64,000 nt of DNA from Candidatus Saccharimonadia bacterium (GTDB taxonomy: Bacteria > Patescibacteriota > Saccharimonadia > UBA4664): the NCBI GenBank assembly GCA_035479295.1, contig DATIIV010000012.1:65010-129009 (forward strand), written 5' to 3'. The notes below the pieces were generated by a model, which was not told where the DNA came from, did no database searches, and saw nothing but the letters and a program-made list of their open reading frames with translations. A program made the position numbers and the translations under genes. This document shows, one piece after another, positions 9,856-53,844 of this stretch; within the stretch, counting starts at the first letter, position 1, and every line of letters begins with the position of its first letter.

Positions 9856-9918
9856 GAGGGCCTCCTTATTACTAGTAAGTATAGCTGAGTGGGCGAGTAT
9901 TTTTGCTATACTTCACCC

Positions 9919-10872
9919 ATGAATCACGCACTTACCTCAAGAGACACAGTTGCGTCGGCTATTATTGACGTCAGTCTTCGCTCGGCTAGGGCCAAAAGCA
10001 TCTATATATTTGAGCTAGGCAATCTAAATGATCTGATGCCAAAACTCGAAGCCGAGAAGATCCGCCAAGAATTTGTGCGCCACAATACACCGATAAAACA
10101 GATAACTAATCTCCGCAGATTTACGGCGTGGACCGAAAATGCCGAGCTGACGCAGCAAAACTTGGCGGTAAAGTATGTGCCGGCGGAGAATTTTGCCATT
10201 ACGAGCGAGGTTCTAATATTTGATAATACGGTAGCGGTTTATCGCTTAGAGCCGGAGCCCTTCTACTTTGAACAGGATGACAAATCTTATGCTGACATGC
10301 TGCGCAGCTTGTTTATGAACCTCTGGCAAGTCGGTGATTCGCTTTTGCTGTCAGCTGATGGCAGTACACTAACCAAGCAATACTCACCGATCTCGTACCA
10401 GTTTAAAGAATTGCCCGTCATTCTTTACCCCGCCAAAGATGACGGACAGCTTGAAAAAGCCTTTTCTCGTAGTAAAAAAGGTGGTTTAGAAAAGTATGTA
10501 AACTCTATCTTGGAAAAAGATTACACCTACTATAAGGACGCCGACGTCATCTTGGCGTACGTCTGGAATCAGGAGAGCGTCCCGTATTGCGACATCTGGA
10601 AGATCAGTCGTAATACCATCAGTGACGACTCAGGGCTGCTCTATGATGTTAGAATCTATGCCGATCATGAGGTTACGCAGGACATGGGCGTGGCGAGCGG
10701 AAACTCCTCAATCGTGCTAACTGCCGAGGAGATGCTTCTGCGAGAATTGGTTATAAAAGATGGATTATCTTTCGTTGCGGCGGCTAACAGGGAGCTGTAT
10801 CCGGCGCGATTTCCGATTGGCTATGTGCCGGATGAGAGTTTTTACCGCGTCACGACAACTCCAGCCCAATGA
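9919..10872 (+). CDS. Hypothetical protein encoded in a low-GC patch (start uncertain, 9889 or 9919)
   Basis: Codon composition is markedly more AT-rich than its neighbours. No family I recognise. Confidence 0.45.
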   Translation: MNHALTSRDTVASAIIDVSLRSARAKSIYIFELGNLNDLMPKLEAEKIRQEFVRHNTPIKQITNLRRFTAWTENAELTQQNLAVKYVPAENFAITSEVLIFDNTVAVYRLEPEPFYFEQDDKSYADMLRSLFMNLWQVGDSLLLSADGSTLTKQYSPISYQFKELPVILYPAKDDGQLEKAFSRSKKGGLEKYVNSILEKDYTYYKDADVILAYVWNQESVPYCDIWKISRNTISDDSGLLYDVRIYADHEVTQDMGVASGNSSIVLTAEEMLLRELVIKDGLSFVAAANRELYPARFPIGYVPDESFYRVTTTPAQ

Positions 10873-32709: not shown

Positions 32710-34035
32710 ATGGATGATATTCAGTCTCAGCCTATCTTTTTGATTATTGTTGGCATCTCGGGCGATTTGGCGCGTCGCAAGCTCTTGCCGGCTCTGCGCC
32801 AGATTGCGGCGGCGGGTGAGTTGCCACGCGAGTTTCGGGTTATCGGCATCACCCGCCGGCAGCTCAATGTGGCCAGCCTAACGGCCGGCGATGCCTTTTT
32901 GGCCGCGCACCTGGAGCTCTACCAAATGGATCTGGCCGAAGTCGCGGCCTACGACGGCCTTAAGCGACATCTGGCACAGCTCGAGCAGCAGTTGGGCGGC
33001 GCGGCTCAGCGGCTGTATTATCTCTCGGTGCCGCCGCAGGTGTCTGGGCCAATCGTGCAATTATTGGGCGAGTCTGGCTTAGCGGCTATGCCAGACAGTA
33101 AGTTGCTGCTCGAGAAGCCGTTTGGCACCGATCTCGCTTCGGCTGAGGACTTTATTGCCCACACCCAGCGCCACTTTACCGAGGACCAAATCTACCGCAT
33201 CGACCACTACTTGGCCAAAGAGATGGCTCAGAATCTGCTGGTATTTCGGGGCGGCAATGCGCTGTTTCGGCGCACCTGGAACCATGAGTTTATCGAGCGC
33301 ATCGAGCTGCTGGCCAGCGAAGAGATCGGCATTGAGGGTCGCTCGGCCTTTTACGAGCAGACCGGCGCGCTGCGCGATTTGGTGCAGAGCCACCTGCTGC
33401 AGCTGGCGGCTCTCACGCTCATGGAGGTCCCGCCGGCCGGCGACGAGACCCAGCTGCGGGCGGCCCGGCTCGCCGCCTTGCAGGCGCTGCAGCCGCCGGT
33501 CGATAGTACGCGGGATGTGCGCCGCGGCCAGTATATTGGCTACCGGGCCGAGGTGGCCAACCCCGCTAGTGCCACCGAGACGTTTGTATCGCTGACGCTC
33601 CGATCGCACGATCCGCGCTGGCAGGGTGTGCCCATTACGCTCACAACCGGCAAAGGCCTGGCGCGCAAAACCACCGAAATTCGAATTCATTATCGTCAGA
33701 GCGAGGCCGACGAAGCCAATGAGCTGGTGCTGCGCGTGCAGCCGCGCGAGGGCATCGAGCTTGATCTGTGGGCCAAGCGACCCGGCTACGACCATCGGCT
33801 CGAACGCGTGCCGCTCGAGTTTGCCTACAGCCGTCACTTCGACTCGCTGCCGGAGGCCTACGAGCGCGTGCTGGTCGACGCCATGCGGTCGCGCCGCAGT
33901 CTGTTTGCTTCGAGCGAGGAGGTACTGGCCTCGTGGCGCATCCTGGCGCCGGTGCAGCGGGCTTGGGGCATGAGCGATAAAGACTTAATCCTCTATCCGC
34001 TTGGCAGTGAGCCGGCCGCCGTCATTGGTCGGTAA
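32710..34035 (+). CDS. zwf: Glucose-6-phosphate 1-dehydrogenase
   Basis: N-terminal NADP motif IVGISGDLARRKL, the RIDHYLAKE signature, and the EKPFG motif. Confidence 0.9.
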   Translation: MDDIQSQPIFLIIVGISGDLARRKLLPALRQIAAAGELPREFRVIGITRRQLNVASLTAGDAFLAAHLELYQMDLAEVAAYDGLKRHLAQLEQQLGGAAQRLYYLSVPPQVSGPIVQLLGESGLAAMPDSKLLLEKPFGTDLASAEDFIAHTQRHFTEDQIYRIDHYLAKEMAQNLLVFRGGNALFRRTWNHEFIERIELLASEEIGIEGRSAFYEQTGALRDLVQSHLLQLAALTLMEVPPAGDETQLRAARLAALQALQPPVDSTRDVRRGQYIGYRAEVANPASATETFVSLTLRSHDPRWQGVPITLTTGKGLARKTTEIRIHYRQSEADEANELVLRVQPREGIELDLWAKRPGYDHRLERVPLEFAYSRHFDSLPEAYERVLVDAMRSRRSLFASSEEVLASWRILAPVQRAWGMSDKDLILYPLGSEPAAVIGR

Positions 34036-34750
34036 TCGCTGCCATAAAGGCCGCTGCAATCGCTGCATAACCTCGCTCGTTGGGATGGAATCGGTCGGCG
34101 GCTAGCTTGCCCGTCCAGGGCAGGGCAAAGGCCGGCCCCATATCTGCTATTTTGAGTCCACGCTGCTGAGCCTGTCGATGCAGAAGCCGGCTGGCCGCTC
34201 GGTAGCGCAACACCGGTGCTAGCAGCGGCGGAATGTTAGGTCGGGCAAAGATATCGGCTACCACGGCGCCGTGTGGCAGCTGCATGAGCAAATGGTCGAG
34301 CCGCCGGAGCAGATGGCGGCGACCGCCGGGCTGAACCAAATCGTTGGAGCCGATCATAACGGTGATCAGATCGGGCCGGAGGCCCAGCTGATCCAGCACC
34401 GGCAGTTGATGATCGATCACGTCCTGAATTCGCCCACCACTAACCGATAGATTGATGAGTCGGTAGCTCCGACCGACCGCAGCTAGCCGTGCGTGGGCCT
34501 GGCCGACCCAGCCGCGGTCGTAGGCCGGGGCGCCAATGCCCTGCGACATCGAGTCGCCGAGTACCACCCACAGCCGGCCCGACCCACCAAGGGCTTGCTC
34601 ATTGGCTTGGTGCCAGGCCGCCGCATACGGCTCTGCTTGGTCTTGCACGGCTCGAAGCGACGGCCACAACTGCCGCAGTAACCGCCGTCCCAAGGCCAAG
34701 CTTGGGTGTAGGGGAGTGCGCCGCTGATAGGAGTTGGTCGCCAAAGCCAC
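34022..34750 (-). CDS. SGNH/GDSL-family hydrolase
   Basis: Block I VLGDSMSQG, block III GSNDL, and the C-terminal D..H region. Overlaps the zwf 3' end by 14 nt on the opposite strand. Confidence 0.65.
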   Translation of the reverse strand: MALATNSYQRRTPLHPSLALGRRLLRQLWPSLRAVQDQAEPYAAAWHQANEQALGGSGRLWVVLGDSMSQGIGAPAYDRGWVGQAHARLAAVGRSYRLINLSVSGGRIQDVIDHQLPVLDQLGLRPDLITVMIGSNDLVQPGGRRHLLRRLDHLLMQLPHGAVVADIFARPNIPPLLAPVLRYRAASRLLHRQAQQRGLKIADMGPAFALPWTGKLAADRFHPNERGYAAIAAAFMAAITDQ

Positions 34751-34758
34751 GGGCCGGT

Positions 34759-36987
34759 TTAGCTCTGGGCGGCGGCGCCAGACTCAGCCGTTTTGGCTCT
34801 AGCCTTAGCTTCGGCCGCTGCTCCGTTGGGTTGCGGCAGCACAATTACCGAAGTGGTCTTAAGCGGCAGCGCGAAGCCAAAGATGCTACCCTTGCCCTCC
34901 TCGGACTTAAAAATAATCGAGCCACCTTGGTCCTCGATCACGCGCTTAGCTAGGTACAAGCCCAAGCCGGTGCCGTCCGGCCGCTCGGCCTTGGCGTTCT
35001 CGGCCCGGTAAAACTTGGAGAACAGGTGACGCTTCTCGTTCTCTGGCACGCCAATGCCGCTATCGATTACCAGCACCTCGGCAGCGCCCTCAGACTCGCG
35101 CACCTCCACCGTGACGCTGCCCTTGGGCGTGTAGTAAATGGCATTATCGATAAAATTCATAATCACCTGGCGCGTCTTGCTCTCGTCGATCGACAGCATG
35201 GGCAGCGGCTTGTCGGGCTGCTTAAAGATGAGTTCCAGCTTCTTGCGCTCGGCGCTCGGCCGCAGCTGCTGCACCTCCTGCTGGGCCAGCTCGCTCAAGT
35301 CCACCGGCTGGCGCTGAATCATAAACCGCCCCGAGCTCAGTCGCGACACATTCAGCAGATCGCTCGACATCGACACCATCCGCTCGGCCGCCTCTAGCGC
35401 GTAGTTAACATACTCGCGCTGCTTCACCGTCATGTTGGCCTGGTCGTCATCGAGCGCCATCGACAAGTAGCCGGTAATGGCGGTCAGCGGCGTGCCCAGC
35501 TGGTGCGACGCCATCGAGATGAAGTCGTCTTTGGTCTTATCCAGCACCTGCAAGTTGCGGTTGGCGGTGCGCAGTCGGTGCGTCGCATTGCGAATCCGCT
35601 CCTGCAGCGTGGCGTTAAAGTGGGCGATCTCTTCGTAGGATTTAGCGTTCTCAATCGCTACGGCTAGTTCTTTGCGGACGATATCGAGCAGCGTCAGATC
35701 CTGGCCCGAATACATTTCGCCACTCATCTTGTAGCCCAGGAAGAGATAGCCCACTAGCTCTTTCTCGGTGCTTAACCTAATAATGACGCCTAGGCCATGC
35801 TCCTCTAGGAATGATTTGGTTGCACCGGGCTCAAGCTCATCTGCTACCAAGGTGCTAGCGTTAATGTGCTCTAAATCCTTGTAGGTAAGTTTATAACGGG
35901 GCTCGTCACCAATGAATGTACGACTATAAATACTGTTGTTCTCGACAATGATGATTTGACCAGTAGCGATGCGCAATGACCAACAGAGCGTGCGCAATGA
36001 CTTCTTGAGGAGCGGTTCAAGTAAGAGCTCTGAAGTCAGAATCTCGCTTAAATCATCGAGCACGATCTGACTGTCGTAGCGATCTCGAAAGAATATGCTG
36101 TCGGTGACCTTCTCGAACAGTCGGCGTAAAGGCTGAAAGGTAATGGCTAGAAATAGCGCCAGGGCAACAAAGACACCAGTTTGGGCTAGCGGGATATTAT
36201 TCTGAAAGAGAATGTTGCTTGCCGCTAGGATGGTAATTCCATACAGGCCAATAAAAGTTGTAAGAAGCAAAAGATAGGCAACTGATCGGGCGACGGCTAG
36301 CCTGATACTAAAGAGTCGATGCTTAACGATAGCGTACGAGACCGACCCCACCAAGAAAACGGTTAGCAATGGGCCGATGCGCGATATGTCCCAGTTGCCG
36401 ACGATAGCCGGAATGACAATGTTTGTGAGCACAGCCAAGATAATAAAACCCGCTATTCCCAGCATAATAAGACGAGTTTGAGCGCGAAGCCGCAAGTCGA
36501 TTCCAGTGTTCCGGTACAGCTTCCAGAGGTAGTAGCAAGATAGTCCAAACATCACCAAGATGAAAATGGGGTAGAGAGTATAAAGGCTGCCGAGAGCAAC
36601 GTTGGTTCCTCCGTCGGGCCGCTTTGAGACGGGACCAACCACGAAATCGCTTAAAGAGAAGATGGTGCCAGCAATAATAATGACGGCACTAACAAGCTGT
36701 CTCCGCTTGCTGGCGCTTTGTTTGCCGCCAAAGTAAAACGCAAACAACGTTATGGTGGCTAACACGAGAAAACCGGCGCCAAAGTCAAGGCGAGCAAAGA
36801 ACTGATCAAGGCCAAGCGTGGGAGCTCGGTCGGTAAGATAATTGAAGATCGTCCAGGCGGTGATTGACAGGGAGATGCCAAAAAACGCCCGACTCTCGGC
36901 TCGCTGAGGGTTACGCATAAACACGAGCGAGCCGAGAGCCAAATTGCTTACTGAGGCGAGTATGAGGATGGCGAGGTCAAATATCAT
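34759..36987 (-). CDS. PrsK-like sensor histidine kinase (about 300-aa multi-TM N-terminal domain, GAF-like region, HisKA, HATPase_c), cassette A
   Basis: H-box ISMASHQLGTPLT, N-box IDNAIYYT, G-boxes DSGIGV and GTGLGL. Paralog of 53845-56013. Its start overlaps the upstream stop as ATGA. Confidence 0.8.
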   Translation of the reverse strand: MIFDLAILILASVSNLALGSLVFMRNPQRAESRAFFGISLSITAWTIFNYLTDRAPTLGLDQFFARLDFGAGFLVLATITLFAFYFGGKQSASKRRQLVSAVIIIAGTIFSLSDFVVGPVSKRPDGGTNVALGSLYTLYPIFILVMFGLSCYYLWKLYRNTGIDLRLRAQTRLIMLGIAGFIILAVLTNIVIPAIVGNWDISRIGPLLTVFLVGSVSYAIVKHRLFSIRLAVARSVAYLLLLTTFIGLYGITILAASNILFQNNIPLAQTGVFVALALFLAITFQPLRRLFEKVTDSIFFRDRYDSQIVLDDLSEILTSELLLEPLLKKSLRTLCWSLRIATGQIIIVENNSIYSRTFIGDEPRYKLTYKDLEHINASTLVADELEPGATKSFLEEHGLGVIIRLSTEKELVGYLFLGYKMSGEMYSGQDLTLLDIVRKELAVAIENAKSYEEIAHFNATLQERIRNATHRLRTANRNLQVLDKTKDDFISMASHQLGTPLTAITGYLSMALDDDQANMTVKQREYVNYALEAAERMVSMSSDLLNVSRLSSGRFMIQRQPVDLSELAQQEVQQLRPSAERKKLELIFKQPDKPLPMLSIDESKTRQVIMNFIDNAIYYTPKGSVTVEVRESEGAAEVLVIDSGIGVPENEKRHLFSKFYRAENAKAERPDGTGLGLYLAKRVIEDQGGSIIFKSEEGKGSIFGFALPLKTTSVIVLPQPNGAAAEAKARAKTAESGAAAQS

Positions 36988-37796
36988 GCGGGCGTAGGTC
37001 CTGTAAATGCTGGAAACTTGAAGACTTCTTGAAGACCCTCGCCCCGGAACAGCCAGCCAAATCGCTTTGGGTCATTAACGCAAAGGCGCGCCATCCAGTC
37101 CTCGATATCCACCCAAACGGGCAGGCTCAGACTTGAACCAAGGTAAGGCTTCCAACCTATCCCCTCGTAGTAGCTAAAGGGTTCACCAAGTCTGCGCTTG
37201 AAGCTGTTGTGAGCGGACTCATCAACTATTGTAACCCAATAGCGAGCAGCTTGCTCTAGTGTATACTTACATGCCATGTGGTAGATCGCCTTGGCGATCC
37301 GGCCCGAGTATGCGTGGCGATGGTAGGCCGGGACTACCCCCATTGTCACCATGTCTAGCGTAGTTTTGGGGCCAAAGTCGACAGCAGCGGCTTGTAGCGC
37401 CTGAGTTAGCGGTAGGTTCCAGTACCGACCAGGCTCGCTTGACTCGATGTCGGTGAGGCTTTTAAAGCCGAGGGGCGACCGTCTGATCACTCGCAACATT
37501 CCGGCTGGTAGACCGTTTGCATGGTCGATAAGGATAAAGAATGTGCTGTAGGGATCATATGGCCCATACTCTCTCTCTAGATCCTCTGGCGTGTCCCCGT
37601 AGAAAGCGAATACGTCCGCCTCCGCCAACCGCGCGACTGGCAATGCCCAGTGCGGTGTGCCGGTTTGGGGCTCGATGCGATAGACGCCAAATGGCTGCGA
37701 TGGCGCGGCATTACCCTGGTCCATGAGGCGGCGAATCAGGTCCTTAGAGCGAATCGTCTCTTCCCACTGTTCTCGCACTAGCCCCGTAGCGACCAC
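36984..37796 (-). CDS. GNAT-fold acyltransferase, LuxI / N-acyl-amino-acid-synthase-like (divergent), cassette A
   Basis: Shares motifs with 53094-53807 (E.LE...YD.YS.F; RYW.T; LG.P) and has the GVVPAYHRH GNAT-like core. Lower GC than the background. Confidence 0.4.
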   Translation of the reverse strand: MVATGLVREQWEETIRSKDLIRRLMDQGNAAPSQPFGVYRIEPQTGTPHWALPVARLAEADVFAFYGDTPEDLEREYGPYDPYSTFFILIDHANGLPAGMLRVIRRSPLGFKSLTDIESSEPGRYWNLPLTQALQAAAVDFGPKTTLDMVTMGVVPAYHRHAYSGRIAKAIYHMACKYTLEQAARYWVTIVDESAHNSFKRRLGEPFSYYEGIGWKPYLGSSLSLPVWVDIEDWMARLCVNDPKRFGWLFRGEGLQEVFKFPAFTGPTPA

Positions 37797-38137
37797 TAGG
37801 TCTCCTTAAACTCGATGTGTGAAGCCTTGAAATAACGCTGAGTAAACTCCACAGCGTTATTCACATTGAAAGCCTTGCAGGTATATATGTCAACGCTAAA
37901 GAAGAGGCGCGGTTGCTCCCAGGCGTATAGGTGAGCCCCCGATGTTTCCCAGTGAATCCAGCCAGCCCAGCCGTAGAGGTCTGAGCGGTGTGTCACCGGT
38001 TTGATGAGTGCTGTCATGCCTGTTACGACAGAGAGCTGTTCAAGGTAGTCTTTAATTTGGGCATCATCAATAGGTTGGGCGCAATAGCCCTCAATAATAA
38101 GCCGCTGCCGGTATATCTCCGGCGCTAGATCCCTCAC
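37796..38137 (-). CDS. S-adenosylmethionine decarboxylase-fold (SpeH/class 1b-like) small protein with atypical processing motif
   Basis: Aligns to SpeH: RQRLIIEGYCAQ vs GRHLVAEFYECD, and IHWETSGAHLYAWEQPRLFFSVDIYTCK vs [26 protein letters not shown]. The canonical ESH cleavage site is replaced by ETSGAH. Confidence 0.6.
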   Translation of the reverse strand: MRDLAPEIYRQRLIIEGYCAQPIDDAQIKDYLEQLSVVTGMTALIKPVTHRSDLYGWAGWIHWETSGAHLYAWEQPRLFFSVDIYTCKAFNVNNAVEFTQRYFKASHIEFKET

Positions 38138-38215
38138 CCCATAGCTCCTTGTTCAGGCCCATCATACTCTTCTTAGGACCGCTAAGTCTACGTAAAAAGA
38201 TGAAATTAAAGCGTT

Positions 38216-38734
38216 TTACGCCGCCCCAGCTGCTCCCGGAATCTCGTCCTTGGTATAGCCCGCCAAGATGCCGCGGACGATCTCCTCGACCTGCTTGGGC
38301 TTGTGCTCGCTCTTGATGATGTAGCGGACGGCGCCGAGCTCGAGGGCGGTCTGGACGTCGCTGTTGCCGGCCAGGTTGGTGAGCACCACCACCGGAAGAT
38401 TGGCCACGGCCGGATCGGCCTTGAGCTGCTTGAGCACCTCCATGCCGTTAAGCTTGGGCATCATGATGTCGAGCAGAATGAGCGTGGGGTTAACCGAGCG
38501 TGCTTTGTCGAGGCCCTCTTGGCCGTCGGTGGCCAGTTCAACCTCGTAATTATTCGAGGCAAAGATCGTCTGATACATCCGCGAGAGTAAGGCGTCATCT
38601 TCGATGATTAGAATCTTAGGCACACTGAAAACCTCATTTACGCCCATCATACACGAGGCAAGCGAGAAGCGGAAGCCCTTAAGCATAAGCTTTATCAAAG
38701 GACAAATTTCGCGGTTGAGCCGATGGAGCGGCAA
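38216..38734 (-). CDS. Stand-alone response regulator receiver (start probably internal, about 38647-38650)
   Basis: KILIIEDD ... LILLDIMMP ... VVVLTNL ... K. No output domain. Confidence 0.75.
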   Translation of the reverse strand: MPLHRLNREICPLIKLMLKGFRFSLASCMMGVNEVFSVPKILIIEDDALLSRMYQTIFASNNYEVELATDGQEGLDKARSVNPTLILLDIMMPKLNGMEVLKQLKADPAVANLPVVVLTNLAGNSDVQTALELGAVRYIIKSEHKPKQVEEIVRGILAGYTKDEIPGAAGAA

Positions 38735-38737
38735 ATG

Positions 38738-39106
38738 TTAGGACAGGAACGTGAGCGCGCAGGCCGCAAAGATGATGGCAATATCGCGAAAGGTGATGTC
38801 GAGCGAGCCGAGGTTGACTACCATAATGGCCACGGTGGTGGCGGCCGTCACGATGGCGGCGTACTGGCCGCGCCAGCCGGTGAGCAGCCAGATGGCCAGC
38901 GCCGCCTGGAAGGCCGAGAAGCCAGCCAACAGCAGGCTAGCCGGCGCCAGGTGTCGCAGCATGAGGGGCAGGTAGCCGATCCAGTTGTTGGGGTAGAGCG
39001 TGGCGGCCACGGCGGCGTAGGCAAACACGGCTGCGAGACCCAGCCGCAGCAAAAATCGGGCTCGCAGCACCTGGCGGGCGGTGGGCAGGGGGCGTAGTTG
39101 CTTCAT
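38738..39106 (-). CDS. DoxX-like small membrane protein
   Basis: 122 aa with 3-4 TM helices. Pattern is DoxX-like (LRLGLAAVFAYAAV ... LLLAGFSAFQAALAIWLL). Confidence 0.4.
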   Translation of the reverse strand: MKQLRPLPTARQVLRARFLLRLGLAAVFAYAAVAATLYPNNWIGYLPLMLRHLAPASLLLAGFSAFQAALAIWLLTGWRGQYAAIVTAATTVAIMVVNLGSLDITFRDIAIIFAACALTFLS

Positions 39107-39180: not shown

Positions 39181-39603
39181 ATGAAGAATAAGAACGTTAT
39201 TATAACGCTCGTGGTAGCGATTATTATCGTGGTAGCGGTAGCAATTTATCTGGCTATGGCCGGAGGCAAAACCACCGGTAGCCCAATGGCTTCGGCCTCG
39301 CCGACGCCGCAAGCGGTGCCGAGTAGTCAGGCCGTGTCCACTATTAAGTACAATGTCTCGGGCGGCTTTAGTCCTAGCTCGGTCACTATTAAGTCGGGCC
39401 AGGCTATCACCTTTACGAATGATTCGGCCGACGAGATTCAGGTCGACTCCGATCCGCACCCCACGCACACCGATAATCCCGAGCTGAATGTGGGCACCAT
39501 TGCGGCTGGGCAGAGCCAGACCATTAAGCTAACCACCGCCGGCAGCTGGGGCTACCACAACCACCTCAACCCGAGCGACAAGGGGCGCGTGATCGTACAG
39601 TAG
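39181..39603 (+). CDS. Membrane-anchored cupredoxin-like domain protein (no Cys copper ligand)
   Basis: N-terminal TM helix, S/P-rich linker, then a beta-rich domain ending GSWGYHNHLNPSDKGRVIV that resembles the plastocyanin-type C-terminus but lacks Cys. Confidence 0.35.
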   Translation: MKNKNVIITLVVAIIIVVAVAIYLAMAGGKTTGSPMASASPTPQAVPSSQAVSTIKYNVSGGFSPSSVTIKSGQAITFTNDSADEIQVDSDPHPTHTDNPELNVGTIAAGQSQTIKLTTAGSWGYHNHLNPSDKGRVIVQ

Positions 39604-48770: not shown

Positions 48771-49340
48771 CTACGACGACGCCATCACCTTGCGGCGATG
48801 TGCCGCCACTCGCTCCCGAGTTGCACAGCGGGGCGAACAATAGTTGCGGCCACCGCCCTTGCCGAGATCAATGAACGGCCGCTCACATGTGGTAGCGGCG
48901 CATATGCCGCCAGGGCTACGCTGCTTGTCTGCCAGAAGTAGGGCCAGTGCTAAAGCCGAGGATGCTGCAAACCACTCCGCCCAGGGGGCATGATCATTGC
49001 TATCCACATGCAGGTGCCAGGCAGAAGTATTGTGTGCGCTAAGTCGTGGTATCGCGGCGTACTCACTAAGAATCGCATTTAGTAGAGCTGCGATAACGCC
49101 GACATCTTGCGCAGTGAATACCGCATATAGCTTGTCTGATGCAGCTTTTAGGTCAACTAAATCGGCAGCGGCGACCTTGCTTTGCTCGCCGTAGCCCTCC
49201 AGGACTTTATTCAACTGGTCGCTCAGCGCTTGGGGATCAAGTTGCGCTTTATTTTGCAAAACAAACAAAACATCAGCCGCACGCTTTGCAGCATGCGTTG
49301 CAGAACCGAGCGGCAACATTGATGTATTTGTCTTTTCCAC
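48771..49340 (-). CDS. CGNR zinc-finger (ABATE-domain) putative regulator
   Basis: C-terminal CATTCERPFIDLGKGGGRNYCSPRCATRERVAAHRRK fits the CGNR zinc-finger pattern, though divergent. Divergently placed from an MFS gene. Lower GC. Confidence 0.5.
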   Translation of the reverse strand: MEKTNTSMLPLGSATHAAKRAADVLFVLQNKAQLDPQALSDQLNKVLEGYGEQSKVAAADLVDLKAASDKLYAVFTAQDVGVIAALLNAILSEYAAIPRLSAHNTSAWHLHVDSNDHAPWAEWFAASSALALALLLADKQRSPGGICAATTCERPFIDLGKGGGRNYCSPRCATRERVAAHRRKVMASS

Positions 49341-49363
49341 ATGCGTAATATATCATACGTAAC

Positions 49364-50551
49364 GTGAATAATAAAGAAATACGTTACAACCTAACACGCT
49401 ACCTGTTTGGTGCGCTGCCAGCTCGGCTTGGTGACGAAATGTCTGGCCAGGCAATTTTACTTATGGGACTTGCTGCGACACAGACCGTATTCCTCGGTTC
49501 TACATTACTTGCTGGGCTAACATTTTCAGCTGCTCTTGGCGGTCCATTGCTTGGAGCTATTTTAGACCGCGCCCAACAGCCGGGCAGGGTTTTAGCCGGA
49601 GCATTGGGTCTCTATGCTGGGCTCATCGCGCTCATCGCACTTTCGCTAGGGCATGTGCCGGTATGGGCTTCCATAGTGATAGCGTTAGCAGCCGGGTTCT
49701 TTATGCCTGCCATCTCCGGCGGCTGGTCATCGCGCCTAAAGTCGTTCGTTGCCGATGAACAGATGACCCGGGCGAGCGCGATTGATGCTACAACCTTTAA
49801 CATCGCTGGTCTCGTCGGGCCGGCGCTTGCCGGGTTGGTTGCAGCGATGCTTGGCGCTCACTGGGCGATTGCCGTTTTGGTGACACTGCTGGTCGCGGCG
49901 CTGCCTATGGCATGGCTGCTGCCCAAGCGTCCCAAATCGACCAAACAGTCTCACAATACTTCATTGTGGCGAGACATGAGCGATGGATTCAAAGTAATTA
50001 TCACAAATAAGGCTCTGTTTAGGATTACGCTAACGTCCCTCATCTCGTATATGGGAATCGGCATGCTGTGGGTGATCTGTCCCTTAGTTGGCAAAGAGGT
50101 GTTTGGCAATGCCGGATATGGTGGCGTTTTGATGTCCGTACTATCCATCGGCGCGCTCGTTGCGACTGTTGCTTATGCTAAGTGGCCTATGCGTTACAGC
50201 CCAGATGCTGTCGCTTTTGGAGCCACCCTAGCATTAGGTATTGCGATGCTCGTGCTAGCATTTGCTGGCAACATCATCATTACCCTGATTGCTATGTTGA
50301 TAGCCGGGCTAGCCGACGGCCCTCAGCTTGCAGCTATCTTTGCGGTGCGGCATCGTGAAGCGCCTGAGCGCTCACGGAGCCAAGTATTTACAACGGGCGC
50401 AAGTTTGAAGATTACGATGGCTGCTCTGGGTGCGGTCTTGGCCGGGCAACTGGCTGGCATTTCGCTCTTGGTTATGGTCCTTATTGCGGCTTTCGTCCAG
50501 ATTATGGCGGCAATCTCATTCGTCCTTTCCTCGCGAAGTTCAGCTCGCTAG
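49364..50551 (+). CDS. MFS transporter (lower-GC gene)
   Basis: 12 TM helices. MFS-like loops. Confidence 0.7.
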   Translation: MNNKEIRYNLTRYLFGALPARLGDEMSGQAILLMGLAATQTVFLGSTLLAGLTFSAALGGPLLGAILDRAQQPGRVLAGALGLYAGLIALIALSLGHVPVWASIVIALAAGFFMPAISGGWSSRLKSFVADEQMTRASAIDATTFNIAGLVGPALAGLVAAMLGAHWAIAVLVTLLVAALPMAWLLPKRPKSTKQSHNTSLWRDMSDGFKVIITNKALFRITLTSLISYMGIGMLWVICPLVGKEVFGNAGYGGVLMSVLSIGALVATVAYAKWPMRYSPDAVAFGATLALGIAMLVLAFAGNIIITLIAMLIAGLADGPQLAAIFAVRHREAPERSRSQVFTTGASLKITMAALGAVLAGQLAGISLLVMVLIAAFVQIMAAISFVLSSRSSAR

Positions 50552-50678: not shown

Positions 50679-51461
50679 ATGACGAAATTGTTGGCTGGCA
50701 AGGATGTGGCCGGATTCATTCAGGAGCGCCACGCCCAGACGGTGCGAGGCCTTCTGGTTGCGCCCAAATTGGCGATTGTGCGCCAGGGCGCCACGCCGGC
50801 TACCGATGCCTATCTGCGCGTTAAGAAGCAGTACGGCGCCGATATCGGTGTGATGGTTGATACTTACACCGAGGCGCCGGCCGATCTGATGGCCCGCATT
50901 GCCGCGCTCAACGCCGACCCCAGCGTCACCGGTATTATCGTGCAGCTGCCGTTTGCCGATCAGCCGGACCTGGCTGAGCAAGCGCTGGCGGCGGTGGCGC
51001 CGGCCAAAGATGTGGACGGCCTGAGCCCCCACTCACCATTTGAGGCCGCCACTCCCAAGGCTATTCTGTGGCTGCTGGCGGCCTACAACGTTGACCTGAG
51101 TGGCCGCCGCATCGCCGTGGTGGGGCAGGGCCGGCTGGTCGGCGCGCCACTGGCCGACCGCCTCGACGCCAGTGGCCATGACGTGGCGCGCCTCGACGAG
51201 CACACACCCAACCTGGCCGCCGCCCTGCACGACGCCGGCGCTATTATCACCGCCACCGGCCAGCCCGGCCTCATCACCTCGGCCATGGTAGCCGACGGCG
51301 CCATCGTGGTCGACGCCGCCTCGCCCCGCAGCGACCTGGCCCGCGACCTCTTCGACCGCGCCGACCTCATCATCACGCCCAATCCCGGCGGCGTCGGCCC
51401 CATGACCGTGGCGTCATTATTCGACAATTTACTGATTGCGGCGCAGACTCGTCATCCCTAA
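50679..51461 (+). CDS. folD: Bifunctional methylenetetrahydrofolate dehydrogenase/cyclohydrolase
   Basis: Family pattern: ...LAIVRQGATPATDAYLRVKKQ ... GIIVQLP ... VVGQGRLVGAPLA ... a short (260 aa) form. Confidence 0.8.
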   Translation: MTKLLAGKDVAGFIQERHAQTVRGLLVAPKLAIVRQGATPATDAYLRVKKQYGADIGVMVDTYTEAPADLMARIAALNADPSVTGIIVQLPFADQPDLAEQALAAVAPAKDVDGLSPHSPFEAATPKAILWLLAAYNVDLSGRRIAVVGQGRLVGAPLADRLDASGHDVARLDEHTPNLAAALHDAGAIITATGQPGLITSAMVADGAIVVDAASPRSDLARDLFDRADLIITPNPGGVGPMTVASLFDNLLIAAQTRHP

Positions 51462-51912: not shown

Positions 51913-52299
51913 CTAAACCTTCTTGGCTAGTAGCGCCTTTACCCGCTCCGTCACCTCTTTGGGCGTCATCTCGGCCTTCACAATGTAGTCGTCGGCGGCC
52001 ATTTTGTAGACGCGCGTGGCCGTCTCGGTGTCGCCCATGTTGGTTAGCACGACCACTTTAGCGTCGCGCCCATTGGCCTGAGAACGCAGCTTTTGCAGCA
52101 TCTCCAAGCCATTCATATTGGGCATCATCAAATCGAGCAAAATAATATCAGGTGCAAACGACTCAATTAATTCCAGTCCACCGGCGCCATCGCCGGCCGT
52201 GGCCACCTCGTAGCCCTCATTCTCAAACTTCACCCGATACATCTGCACGATCGCCATGTCGTCCTCGATGATCGCCACTTTGACTTTTTGGTCACTCAT
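51913..52299 (-). CDS. Stand-alone response regulator receiver
   Basis: VAIIEDD ... IILLDLMMP ... VVVLTNM ... K. 128 aa. Confidence 0.85.
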   Translation of the reverse strand: MSDQKVKVAIIEDDMAIVQMYRVKFENEGYEVATAGDGAGGLELIESFAPDIILLDLMMPNMNGLEMLQKLRSQANGRDAKVVVLTNMGDTETATRVYKMAADDYIVKAEMTPKEVTERVKALLAKKV

Positions 52300-52362: not shown

Positions 52363-53010
52363 CTACTCGATAGGCAGACGATAGATGCGGTTAAGAATCT
52401 GGAGAGCAGTAAGCTTCTCTGCTGCCTCCAGCGGCTTGCCCACCGTAATGGCATAAGAAGGCCATAGCCATCGGCCGCGGCACCACTCGATGTGCACTGG
52501 AATTATCTTTACTTGAGGAGTCTTGGCTAGAACTTCAATGCCGCTTCGGGGCCGAATCTTATGCGGTGTGCGCTTGCCCTCAGGAAAGATCATGATAGAT
52601 TGGTGGTGTTTCAGAAACAGCTGGGCTGCAGTGAGGCCATAAATGTAAGAGGCATTGGCGCTAGCCGGGAAAGCTCCAAACGCAAAGAGGAAGTGACGTA
52701 GGAACTTGTCGAAGAGGGCGTTATGGGCAAAAAAGCGGAGAGGTGCTAGGCCGGCAAGGATGCCTGGTGGAAGTGCGACGCAAATTATAAACGGGTCAAA
52801 CATGCTCTGGTGATTTGCTGCAACTATATAGCAATGATCAGGACTAATATCACCAGGCTGGAGGTTGACTCTAGTCCGATGCGGTAGCAAGTGGGTAATG
52901 AGGCGAATTGGCCAGTAAAGGACGCGCTGACTGAGTAAGATCACGCGAAGACGGCCAGGCGATAAAAGCGAGTCAAGGGACGCAAAAGATTTTACTTGAG
53001 TAGCCGACAT
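52363..53010 (-). CDS. PlsC-family (lysophospholipid/1-acylglycerol-3-phosphate) acyltransferase
   Basis: HxxxxD motif (ANHQSMFD) and FPEGKRT motif. Lower GC. Confidence 0.7.
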   Translation of the reverse strand: MSATQVKSFASLDSLLSPGRLRVILLSQRVLYWPIRLITHLLPHRTRVNLQPGDISPDHCYIVAANHQSMFDPFIICVALPPGILAGLAPLRFFAHNALFDKFLRHFLFAFGAFPASANASYIYGLTAAQLFLKHHQSIMIFPEGKRTPHKIRPRSGIEVLAKTPQVKIIPVHIEWCRGRWLWPSYAITVGKPLEAAEKLTALQILNRIYRLPIE

Positions 53011-53093
53011 CGGTAAAATTGATGATATGTAATTGCGTAATTATATAATAATATTAAAGGCAATGCAAGATGCAAAATGAGGAGTAATAGATA

Positions 53094-53807
53094 GTGACAA
53101 ACAGGCAGGAGGGGGCGGCTGAGTCGGGGAAAGGGGGACTTGGCTCGAGGCATTTGCATTTTGAGGAGCATGGACTGGTCTTTCGCGAGTTAACAGCAGA
53201 GGCCGATTTTAGGGCCGCTTATCGGCTGCGTTATAAAATCTGTGTAGAGCAGCTGCATTGGGTGCAGGGGGTTCCCGAAGAGCAGCTTGAGTACGATGAT
53301 TATGATAAGTACTCGTACCACTTTGGCTGTTTTAGGGAGAGTAAGCTTATAGGGTATATGCGTATGACGCCAGAAGATAATTCCGTGGGCACCATGAGCC
53401 GCGACCACTTTGGCCATCTCTGGCAAATTGACCCTCAGTACCCTACCCACGAAACGGCTGACCTATCCCGACTCTTGGTGGATCGGCCCTATCTGCATAA
53501 ACCCTTGCTGCTGCGGCGAATTCTGATTGGTTTATACCGACTGGCCTACGGAAGGGCAGAATTGAGTCGGCCGCGCATTCGGTATTGGTATTTTATTACC
53601 ACGGGACGCTTGCTTAAGGCTTTAAGATGGCAGTTAGGCTTACCCGTCAAAGTGTTTGGCCACGATCAGACCTCAGATGGCAAAACCACCTATGCAGTCG
53701 GCCTCGATTTACAGCGGGGTCGCCGGAGACTCGCTATCCTCGCACCTTGGCGTCTTATCTACTTTGCCAGGGCTAAGCGGCTTCAACGCGATAATGAGCG
53801 TCCATAG
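53094..53807 (+). CDS. LuxI / N-acyl-amino-acid-synthase-like GNAT acyltransferase (PEP-CTERM-associated-acyltransferase-like), cassette B
   Basis: GAGGAG RBS, 9-nt spacer, GTG. Matches the LuxI-family pattern: RLRYKICVEQLHW, EYDDYD, GYMRM, ADLSRLLV. About 50% GC. Confidence 0.6.
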   Translation: MTNRQEGAAESGKGGLGSRHLHFEEHGLVFRELTAEADFRAAYRLRYKICVEQLHWVQGVPEEQLEYDDYDKYSYHFGCFRESKLIGYMRMTPEDNSVGTMSRDHFGHLWQIDPQYPTHETADLSRLLVDRPYLHKPLLLRRILIGLYRLAYGRAELSRPRIRYWYFITTGRLLKALRWQLGLPVKVFGHDQTSDGKTTYAVGLDLQRGRRRLAILAPWRLIYFARAKRLQRDNERP

Positions 53808-53844
53808 TATCAACTTAAGCAAAAGAGCTATAGAATAAAGATTA

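Follow-up and report, generated by a model that had tools for sequence, protein, structure and literature searches.

Organization of the locus

The DNA analysed here (the window) is a stretch of 64,000 nucleotides of contig DATIIV010000012.1 (positions 65,010 to 129,009 of the forward strand), from assembly GCA_035479295.1 of a Candidatus Saccharimonadia bacterium, and our subject is a group of tightly packed minus-strand genes between positions 34,022 and 38,734 of this stretch, which we refer to as cassette A. In the order in which they would be read, these genes encode a CheY-like receiver, a small protein with the fold of S-adenosylmethionine decarboxylase (AdoMetDC) that we call DC, a predicted LuxI/FeeM-like acyltransferase of the GNAT fold that we call X, a sensor histidine kinase, and an SGNH/GDSL hydrolase (Table 1). 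Pfam supports the domain calls for four of the five proteins, namely the hydrolase, the kinase, DC and the receiver. A previous sequence-only reading of the window, made without database searches, had described these five open reading frames (ORFs) together with their shared or overlapping start and stop codons, and both are present. Translational coupling is seen at the two junctions around X: an ATGA at 36984-36987 joins the stop codon of X to the start codon of the kinase, and the G at 37796 is common to the TAG stop of DC and the GTG start of X (TAGTG), giving a one-base overlap. An AAGGAG Shine-Dalgarno sequence lies eight bases ahead of this GTG, and a gap of only 8 nt separates the kinase stop from the start of the hydrolase gene.

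The ORF of the receiver opens with a TTG at 38734, and PF00072 covers only its residues 41-147. Judging from the sequence, the real start is likely the ATG at 38650 or the GTG at 38623, the latter preceded by GAGG. The phospho-acceptor Asp (38468-38470) lies inside the motif LLDIMMP, and L001, the closest relative (see below), has a co-directional receiver with which the protein shares 70% identity. Within the 78-bp gap that separates the receiver from DC, there is a promoter-like site that could serve as a separate start for a DC-X-kinase transcript; the five such sites in the region are no more than the shuffled expectation (2.9, standard deviation 1.9) allows.

Table 1. Features of cassette A, predicted functional residues, and features of the second cassette (cassette B) in the window
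Feature	Position in window	Strand	Support or remark
Single-domain CheY-like receiver, without output domain	38216-38650 (likely); ORF 38216-38734	minus	PF00072, 3.2e-24
Promoter-like site, TAGACT-18 nt-TATGAT	38161-38190	minus	gap between receiver and DC
DC, 113-aa AdoMetDC-fold protein, predicted pyruvoyl-dependent decarboxylase	37796-38137	minus	PF02675, 2e-11
DC, predicted self-cleavage site T65/S66	37940-37945	minus	SpeD alignment
DC, predicted catalytic Cys87	37877-37879	minus	SpeD alignment
X, 270-aa LuxI/FeeM-like GNAT-fold acyltransferase (predicted)	36984-37796	minus	family outside Pfam/NCBIfam
X, E59, family-invariant	37620-37622	minus	family alignment
X, R102, family-invariant	37491-37493	minus	family alignment
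X, D148, nearly invariant	37353-37355	minus	family alignment
Sensor histidine kinase, 742 aa	34759-36987	minus	HisKA_7TM (8e-9), HisKA and HATPase_c (Pfam)
Kinase His495 (HisKA)	35503-35505	minus	Pfam HisKA
SGNH/GDSL hydrolase	34022-34750	minus	PF13472, 3e-22
FolD	50679-51461	plus	
Receiver, cassette B	51913-52299	minus	
PlsC-family acyltransferase, divergent from GNAT	52363-53010	minus	PF01553, 3e-12
237-aa GNAT, cassette B	53094-53807	plus	
HisKA_7TM kinase paralogue, cassette B	53845-56013	plus	44% identical to cassette A kinase
Second receiver, cassette B	within 55883-56455	plus	

DC, a protein with the AdoMetDC fold

The AdoMetDC fold that the sequence-only reading had ascribed to the small protein was borne out, and the protein matches PF02675 (2e-11). 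Relatives of DC are numerous (more than 2,500 at 90% clustering), and the best 120 of them are 67-88% identical to the window copy and share the invariant core GWAGWIHWETSGAH(F/L)YAW...FFSVD.YTC. We aligned DC with SpeD of Thermotoga maritima, using a reference sequence that is identical to that of Protein Data Bank (PDB) entry 1tlu; the chain break after E62 in 3iwb and the S63A mutant in 1tmi both confirm the identity of the pyruvoyl residue S63. In this alignment, S66 of DC corresponds to S63, and C87 corresponds to the catalytic C83; both are invariant in 23 of 23 DC sequences. The essential residues of AdoMetDC are S63, H68 and C83 (Li et al., PMC10407285). The processing residue H68 aligns with Y71 of DC, with an invariant histidine, H69, located two residues earlier. 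PDB sequence searches with DC or its profile returned only spurious RRM matches.

W73 of DC aligns with W70 of the T. maritima enzyme and E74 with P71, such that there is no proline after the conserved tryptophan. All bona fide AdoMetDCs have this proline, part of the motif HTWPE, and the arginine decarboxylase type has lost it; AdoMetDC homologues that have switched to arginine or ornithine as substrates are documented (PMC10407285). Furthermore, DC scores 20.4 bits against TIGR03330, the equivalog model for decarboxylases of S-adenosylmethionine (SAM), for which the cutoff is 75.65 bits. Given the missing proline and this sub-cutoff score, DC is probably not a SAM decarboxylase. The alignment suggests that it is most likely an active pyruvoyl enzyme that cleaves itself at T65/S66.

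X, an acyltransferase outside the curated families

The sequence-only reading had seen in X motifs of LuxI-family and N-acyl amino acid synthase-like enzymes and had named TIGR03694, PF00765 and PF13444 for searches with hidden Markov models (HMMs), but these searches returned no significant match to any of the three. Indeed, X has no Pfam or NCBIfam match at E<=0.01, and at E<=10 there are only faint matches to PF13444 (E 0.24; 12.6 bits, cutoff 22.4) and TIGR03694 (E 0.13; 11.7 bits, cutoff 111.95), both on residues 72-109, and none to PF00765 (Autoind_synth). A word-indexed search recovered only 7 relatives of X, whereas 1.84 billion representatives searched in full with a HMMER profile yielded 964 at E<=1e-3, of which 726 were at E<=1e-10. 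Together with the absence of a curated match, these relatives place X in a large family, comprising about 960 representative clusters, for which neither Pfam nor NCBIfam has a model. Among 117 members of the family, 23 reach PF13444 at E<=0.01, two reach FeeM, and one reaches Autoind_synth (E 5e-4). In cultured Blastococcus and Trujillonella strains, RefSeq labels X as a hypothetical protein.

In its predicted structure, X is nearest to acyl-homoserine lactone (AHL) synthases and to the N-acyl amino acid synthase FeeM, and a profile search of the PDB gave only a non-significant GNAT (1y7r, E 0.33). Comparison of the family profile with LasI, whose reference sequence was checked against PDB entry 1ro5, gave an hhalign E value of 6.6e-5. 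Several LasI positions are kept in X: R70 as R102, E101 as D148, F27 as F63, and D47 as D or E at position 81. Other LuxI residues are changed, namely R23 to E59, W33 to D or N at position 68, D44 to G78, and R104 to T151. X presents an AHL-synthase-like GNAT fold and, at the LasI E101 position, the beta-4 catalytic acid. From these residues and the fold, we infer that X acts like a LuxI/FeeM-type N-acyltransferase, outside PF00765 and PF13444. The sequence-only reading had also found the proximity of an AdoMetDC-fold gene to a LuxI-like enzyme suggestive, because LuxI chemistry consumes SAM; this link is weak, as DC lacks the AdoMetDC proline and X lacks R23, W33 and D44.

The membrane sensor kinase

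The kinase belongs to the HisKA_7TM (PF16927) sensor kinases, with 36.1 bits over residues 8-228 against a cutoff of 28.6, and it scores 54.7 bits for HisKA and 84.4 bits for HATPase_c. A hydropathy scan indicates about 8-9 transmembrane (TM) segments in residues 1-285. The description of this protein as a multi-TM GAF kinase therefore stands with respect to its membrane domain, but not with respect to GAF, for which residues 290-470 of the window kinase gave no match. Since orthologues such as that of locus L008 do carry this domain (GAF_2, 4.4e-8), a GAF-like linker may nevertheless be present at about residues 300-470.

PrsK, the kinase of the PEP-CTERM/exosortase system, was described in PMC1569441, and the sequence-only reading had assigned its architecture to the window kinase. 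The N-terminal 465 residues have no match to TIGR02916 (PrsK) at E<=10; the only families they match, and these weakly, are LuxN (E 1.4e-5, 23 bits) and LIC10906 (E 2.7e-4). TIGR02916 is likewise absent from the best 25 of the 83 families that match the full-length protein. The kinase being of the HisKA_7TM type and without a TIGR02916 match, its identification as PrsK can be ruled out.

Conservation of the gene neighbourhood

To describe the neighbourhood, we used contigs recovered through X or DC and a species scan with one genome per species, which found 358 genomes with a relative of DC; the locus counts given below refer to the best 80 loci, with ORFs scored by profiles built in this analysis. 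In the four contigs recovered through X, a 113-aa AdoMet_dc gene lies directly upstream of X in every case. The closest relative, L001, in which X is 62% identical to the window protein, has the same order of receiver, DC, X and HisKA_7TM kinase. The same kinase follows X in L004 and L005, and a GGDEF-EAL gene is found there in L003. The six loci recovered through DC (L006-L011) contain a divergent receiver, then DC, an unannotated protein of 262-290 aa, and a multi-TM GAF kinase; by BLASTP, the unannotated proteins are homologous to X (5e-11 to 4e-24).

The species scan gave a similar picture. X directly follows DC in 75 of the 80 loci, and the remaining five have DC without X. The near-obligate pair is followed by a 7TM kinase in 24 loci and is adjacent to a GGDEF-EAL protein of about 780 aa in 43, such that one type of membrane sensor is swapped for the other; eight loci have DC-X with no detected partner. 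Five of these eight lack the relevant flank (four break off where X ends or close to it, and the L052 locus opens with DC), and two others, L017 and L086, contain a GGDEF-EAL-like ORF that was not scored as adjacent. In all, the kinase lies directly downstream of X in L001, in L004-L011 and in 24 of the 80 genome loci. DC is 63-87% identical across these loci, with invariant catalytic Ser and Cys. Gene order, whose conservation the sequence-only reading had wished to see assessed, is very widely maintained among relatives, and a unit conserved beside a membrane sensor is what would be expected of the small-molecule signalling module it had suggested.

The 80 loci come from two groups of organisms. 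One consists of metagenome-assembled genomes (MAGs) of Saccharibacteria and Saccharimonadales, and the other of Actinomycetota, including cultured Blastococcus, Modestobacter, Geodermatophilus and Trujillonella as well as MAGs of Acidimicrobiia, Thermoleophilia and Solirubrobacterales. Kinase-type loci with a named taxon belong to Saccharibacteria or Saccharimonadales, plus one Nomurabacteria MAG, with several others labelled "uncultured bacterium"; GGDEF-EAL-type loci with a named taxon belong to Actinomycetota, and several are unclassified. In most of the 24 kinase-type loci, a receiver, usually divergent, is encoded no more than about 1.6 kb upstream of DC. Geodermatophilaceae have the GGDEF-EAL gene upstream and in the same orientation; in the others, it is downstream and convergent. 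Both types of sensor open with about 8-9 hydrophobic segments with little loop sequence between them. Since a phmmer comparison of the N-terminus of the kinase with that of the GGDEF-EAL protein found no homology, these two domains are analogous rather than demonstrably homologous. A neighbour-joining tree of X, which carries no support values, interleaves the kinase-type and GGDEF-type clades; we did not use it for the direction or number of transfers.

The two enzymes are also found as a single protein. P0258 (381 aa) is a natural DC-X fusion in which residues 1-113 match the DC profile (E 4e-52), and if it cleaves itself as predicted for DC, the pyruvoyl-bearing chain would remain covalently joined to the acyltransferase. 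Another protein, P0237 (670 aa), is a tandem X-X.

The conserved unit consists of four genes: receiver, DC, X and HisKA_7TM kinase. The SGNH hydrolase, which the sequence-only reading had included, can be excluded as part of the module, as no homologue stands beside it in any of 91 related loci, and in L001 the gene after that of the kinase is Mem_trans. Among the genes listed for 15 inspected loci, there was no EpsH exosortase, no PEP-CTERM protein and no sigma-54 regulator PrsR. PADLOC gave no matches, and a role in anti-phage defence is therefore unsupported.

Some of the related loci have peculiarities of their own. In certain loci of the Candidate Phyla Radiation (CPR), a second paralogous 7TM kinase stands right after the first (L034, 8495-10336; L065, 8372-10333; L063, 9390-10336). 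The loci with an orphan DC are L020, L049, L070, L084 and L090; in L049, which belongs to a Saccharibacteria MAG, a convergent 306-aa gene comes next after DC, and then a membrane protein and a kinase, and L084 is binned as a Woesearchaeota archaeon. In the window itself, the gene upstream of the receiver (38738-39106, minus strand) encodes a membrane protein of 122 aa, for which there are no more than faint DoxX-like matches (E 0.04-0.12), and a divergent gene (39181-39603, plus strand) encodes a secreted cupredoxin-like protein (PF13473, 5.5e-7). Neither of these neighbours is found beside the module in the related loci for which neighbours are listed.

Base composition

The sequence-only reading had regarded the five genes as a compositionally distinct block, possibly of foreign origin, with a GC content that falls to about 50% from a background of 62-65%. 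The drop is real, reaching 47-52% over 35.5-37.0 kb, but the background is lower than had been proposed: the 64-kb window has about 59% GC, with a mean of 59.6% for its ORFs and a range of 49-65% for 2-kb windows. At third codon positions (GC3), the mean for the window is 0.712 (standard deviation 0.089). Low values are confined to DC (0.588), X (0.607) and the sensor half of the kinase (residues 1-470, 0.57-0.59), and they are not seen in the catalytic half of the kinase (residues 470-742, 0.81), the hydrolase (0.68) or the receiver (0.77). Hence, the five-gene block is not uniformly distinct. Moreover, equally low GC3 is found elsewhere in the window, at 9889-10872, 48771-50551 and 52363-53807, which indicates that this genome is compositionally patchy well beyond cassette A. 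Among the genes at 9889-10872 and 48771-50551, where GC3 is as low as 0.52-0.54, are a CGNR zinc-finger/ABATE regulator and an MFS transporter. With low GC3 in only part of the block and other genes of the window equally low, a foreign origin of the five genes is unsupported.

Part of the dip can be attributed to the T-rich codons of a polytopic membrane domain encoded on the minus strand, which matches the strong positive AT skew at 35.5-37.0 kb. Within the kinase gene itself, GC3 jumps from 0.57-0.59 to 0.81 near residue 470. One possible cause of this jump is a recombination joint at which DC, X and the sensor domain were imported together; another is that the two halves are under different codon constraints.

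A second cassette in the window

In the region 50.7-56.5 kb, the window contains a second, paralogous arrangement, which we call cassette B (GNAT and kinase at 53094-56013; gene order in Table 1). Its 237-aa GNAT matches PF13444 (2.1e-7, above the cutoff) and TIGR03694 (2.2e-11, below the cutoff), and it also reaches Autoind_synth (2.8e-4), FeeM (2.9e-3) and, weakly, OlsB (E 2.7e-3). This GNAT is remotely homologous to the X family (hhalign probability 89%, E 2.4e-6) and is followed by a HisKA_7TM kinase paralogous to that of cassette A, without a DC partner. With the two cassettes, the arrangement of an acyltransferase of the LuxI/N-acyl amino acid synthase clan followed by a 7TM kinase occurs twice in this genome. 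The pairing of the GNAT with a divergent PlsC-family protein resembles the OlsB and OlsA enzymes of ornithine-lipid synthesis.

Other Saccharibacteria hold their DC-X-kinase genes after FolD and a divergent receiver, and in the window this site is occupied by cassette B. The cassette B receiver is 48-50% identical to the receivers of those DC-X-kinase loci, versus 37-38% for the receiver of cassette A. A third two-component pair is located at 25090-27165 (minus strand), with the kinase at 25090-26754 and the receiver at 26758-27165; the latter is 78% identical to the second receiver of L001 (5433-5843).

Comparison with known signalling systems

Genetic coupling of a synthase to a membrane kinase is well known from quorum sensing systems of the LuxM/LuxN and CqsA/CqsS types, in which the synthase gene lies beside that of the kinase, and the DC-X cassette shares this logic. 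So do the N-acyl amino acid synthases linked to the PrsK/exosortase system (cited in PMC4897644). In contrast to the TIGR03694/PrsK systems, however, the cassette has no exosortase, PEP-CTERM protein or sigma-54 regulator, its kinase is not TIGR02916, and it has a decarboxylase partner, which N-acyl amino acid synthase systems are not known to have. X also stands apart from the FeeM (PF21926), PF13444 and TIGR03694 enzymes, reaching only E 0.13-0.24 with the latter two. Compared with the LuxI synthases (PF00765; for example, LasI, TofI and RpaI), X has no significant PF00765 match and carries the four substitutions described above. No LuxI system is known to have a pyruvoyl decarboxylase partner, whereas DC is the near-obligate partner of X, and LuxI hosts are Proteobacteria, whereas the hosts of DC-X are Patescibacteria and Actinomycetota. 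The product of DC-X is probably not a homoserine lactone.

The closest precedents for DC are SpeDA and SpeDC, neofunctionalised homologues of the class 1b AdoMetDC/SpeD that act as arginine and ornithine decarboxylases, respectively (PMC10407285). Like them, DC is of the small fold, keeps the pyruvoyl Ser and the catalytic Cys, and belongs to a family spread over CPR and Actinomycetota; as in SpeDA, the AdoMetDC-specific Pro is lost. Unlike them, DC has an invariant WETSGAH motif, T-S rather than E-S at the cleavage site, and a displaced His, and its gene clusters with X, never with polyamine genes.

The idea that a CPR LuxI-like synthase beside a transmembrane kinase is a candidate for a complete quorum sensing system was put forward by Bernard et al. 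(2020, PMC7567580), who detected 36 LuxI homologues in CPR genomes by HMM and found a sensory kinase next to 18 of these. The arrangement that they described is also that of cassette B. LuxI homologues were identified in their survey by BLAST and HMM matches (PMC7567580); X, having no LuxI match, would probably have escaped these homology criteria, and the word "decarboxylase" is absent from the main text of their article. The DC-X pair was not described anywhere in the literature that we searched, and the combination of DC, X and sensor looks like an undescribed small-molecule signalling cassette.

A proposed mechanism and its alternatives

We propose that DC and X form a two-enzyme signal synthase that is genetically coupled to a polytopic membrane receptor, a reading to which, from sequence and synteny, we give an even chance of being correct. 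The chemical steps and the link between ligand and receptor, which we infer, would be as follows. DC would cleave itself between T65 and S66, generating an N-terminal pyruvoyl group, and would then decarboxylate an amino acid to yield a primary amine, the substrate probably being other than SAM. As its fold and conserved residues suggest, X would move an acyl chain from acyl-acyl carrier protein or acyl-coenzyme A onto this amine, using D148 (LasI E101) and R102 (LasI R70), and the product would be a lipophilic N-acyl-amine. Such a molecule would partition into membranes, where, to judge from synteny, the 8-9-TM domain of the adjacent transducer may sense it. In the Saccharimonadia genome studied here, the transducer would be the HisKA_7TM/GAF kinase, which would phosphorylate the stand-alone CheY-like receiver, while in Actinomycetota it would be the GGDEF-EAL enzyme, which would alter the levels of cyclic di-GMP. 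Neither a receiver without a DNA-binding domain nor a GGDEF-EAL protein is a transcription factor, which argues against the sensor being a mere regulator of its own operon.

Several points weigh against this proposal. The acyl donor is a difficulty, as Saccharibacteria are expected to lack fatty-acid synthesis. With no His at the H68 position, DC may fail to process itself and could be a partner without catalytic activity. Five of the 80 genomes have DC without X. That its gene is adjacent does not by itself make the sensor a receptor for the product, and nothing points to the export of the latter.

An alternative with the same predicted chemistry for X is that the pair makes a membrane aminolipid: X would be OlsB-like, DC would supply or trim the head group, the N-acyl-amine would be a structural lipid, and the sensor would monitor membrane composition. 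PF13444, which includes OlsB-type enzymes (OlsB being the ornithine-lipid N-acyltransferase of the same clan), is reached by the GNAT of cassette B, and the pairing of this PF13444/TIGR03694-like GNAT with a PlsC-family O-acyltransferase is the combination of OlsB and OlsA. No PlsC-like second acyltransferase is found, however, in cassette A and its 75 syntenic relatives. Near-obligate pairing with a transducer, and one that is swapped between two types, would be unusual for a bulk-lipid pathway, and structural-lipid genes are usually less patchy in distribution; we therefore consider this explanation unlikely. A different chemistry would follow if DC were a genuine SAM decarboxylase and X acylated decarboxylated SAM, in a LuxI-like reaction on an aminopropyl donor; this comes near the SAM link of the sequence-only reading. 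DC has the AdoMetDC fold and matches PF02675, X resembles the AHL synthases, which use SAM, and, speculatively, an altered binding of the amino-acid end of the substrate might explain why the invariant E59 stands at the position of the invariant R23 of LuxI enzymes. Yet DC falls far below the TIGR03330 cutoff and is without the Pro that every bona fide AdoMetDC has (PMC10407285), and W33 and D44 of LuxI are missing from X, all of which makes this possibility improbable.

We find it still harder to credit that the locus serves polyamine metabolism and sensing, with DC producing a diamine or polyamine precursor, X acting as a polyamine N-acetyl- or N-acyltransferase for homeostasis, and the sensor responding to polyamines. 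A response to polyamines through a GGDEF-EAL protein does exist in the NspS-MbaA system of Vibrio cholerae. Least of all would we expect the two genes to be chance neighbours of unrelated function, X being a toxin-like acetyltransferase of proteins or tRNA and DC a degenerate, non-catalytic fold. Such a reading must contend with synteny in 75 of 80 genomes from two phyla, the DC-X fusion protein, the high identity of DC with its invariant catalytic Ser and Cys, and the null result with PADLOC, which together make it highly improbable.

Returning to the two-enzyme signal synthase, a bolder version of this proposal, which we regard as a long shot, is that DC-X makes a new class of N-acyl-amine autoinducer that is both made and sensed by Saccharibacteria (through the 7TM kinase and receiver) and by members of Actinomycetota, the phylum of their hosts (through GGDEF-EAL proteins), such that it would act as a channel for recognition between epibiont and host, spread by gene transfer between the phyla.

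Implications for Saccharibacteria and their hosts

The locus in the window is one instance of a widespread decarboxylase-acyltransferase pair coupled to membrane signal transducers. If it acts as proposed, the AdoMetDC fold would gain a further functional branch, and the LuxI/FeeM clan of acyltransferases a new one. DC-X is also present in Actinomycetota that are cultured and tractable, among them Blastococcus, Modestobacter, Geodermatophilus and Trujillonella, so that its chemistry and sensing can be tested in these organisms. Actinomycetota is the phylum of the known hosts of Saccharibacteria, and a standing question is by what means these epibionts locate their actinobacterial hosts and communicate with them. 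For Saccharibacteria, as for all other Patescibacteria, no self-made signalling molecule is known to have been established, and the DC-X cassette provides a concrete candidate for Saccharibacteria signalling.

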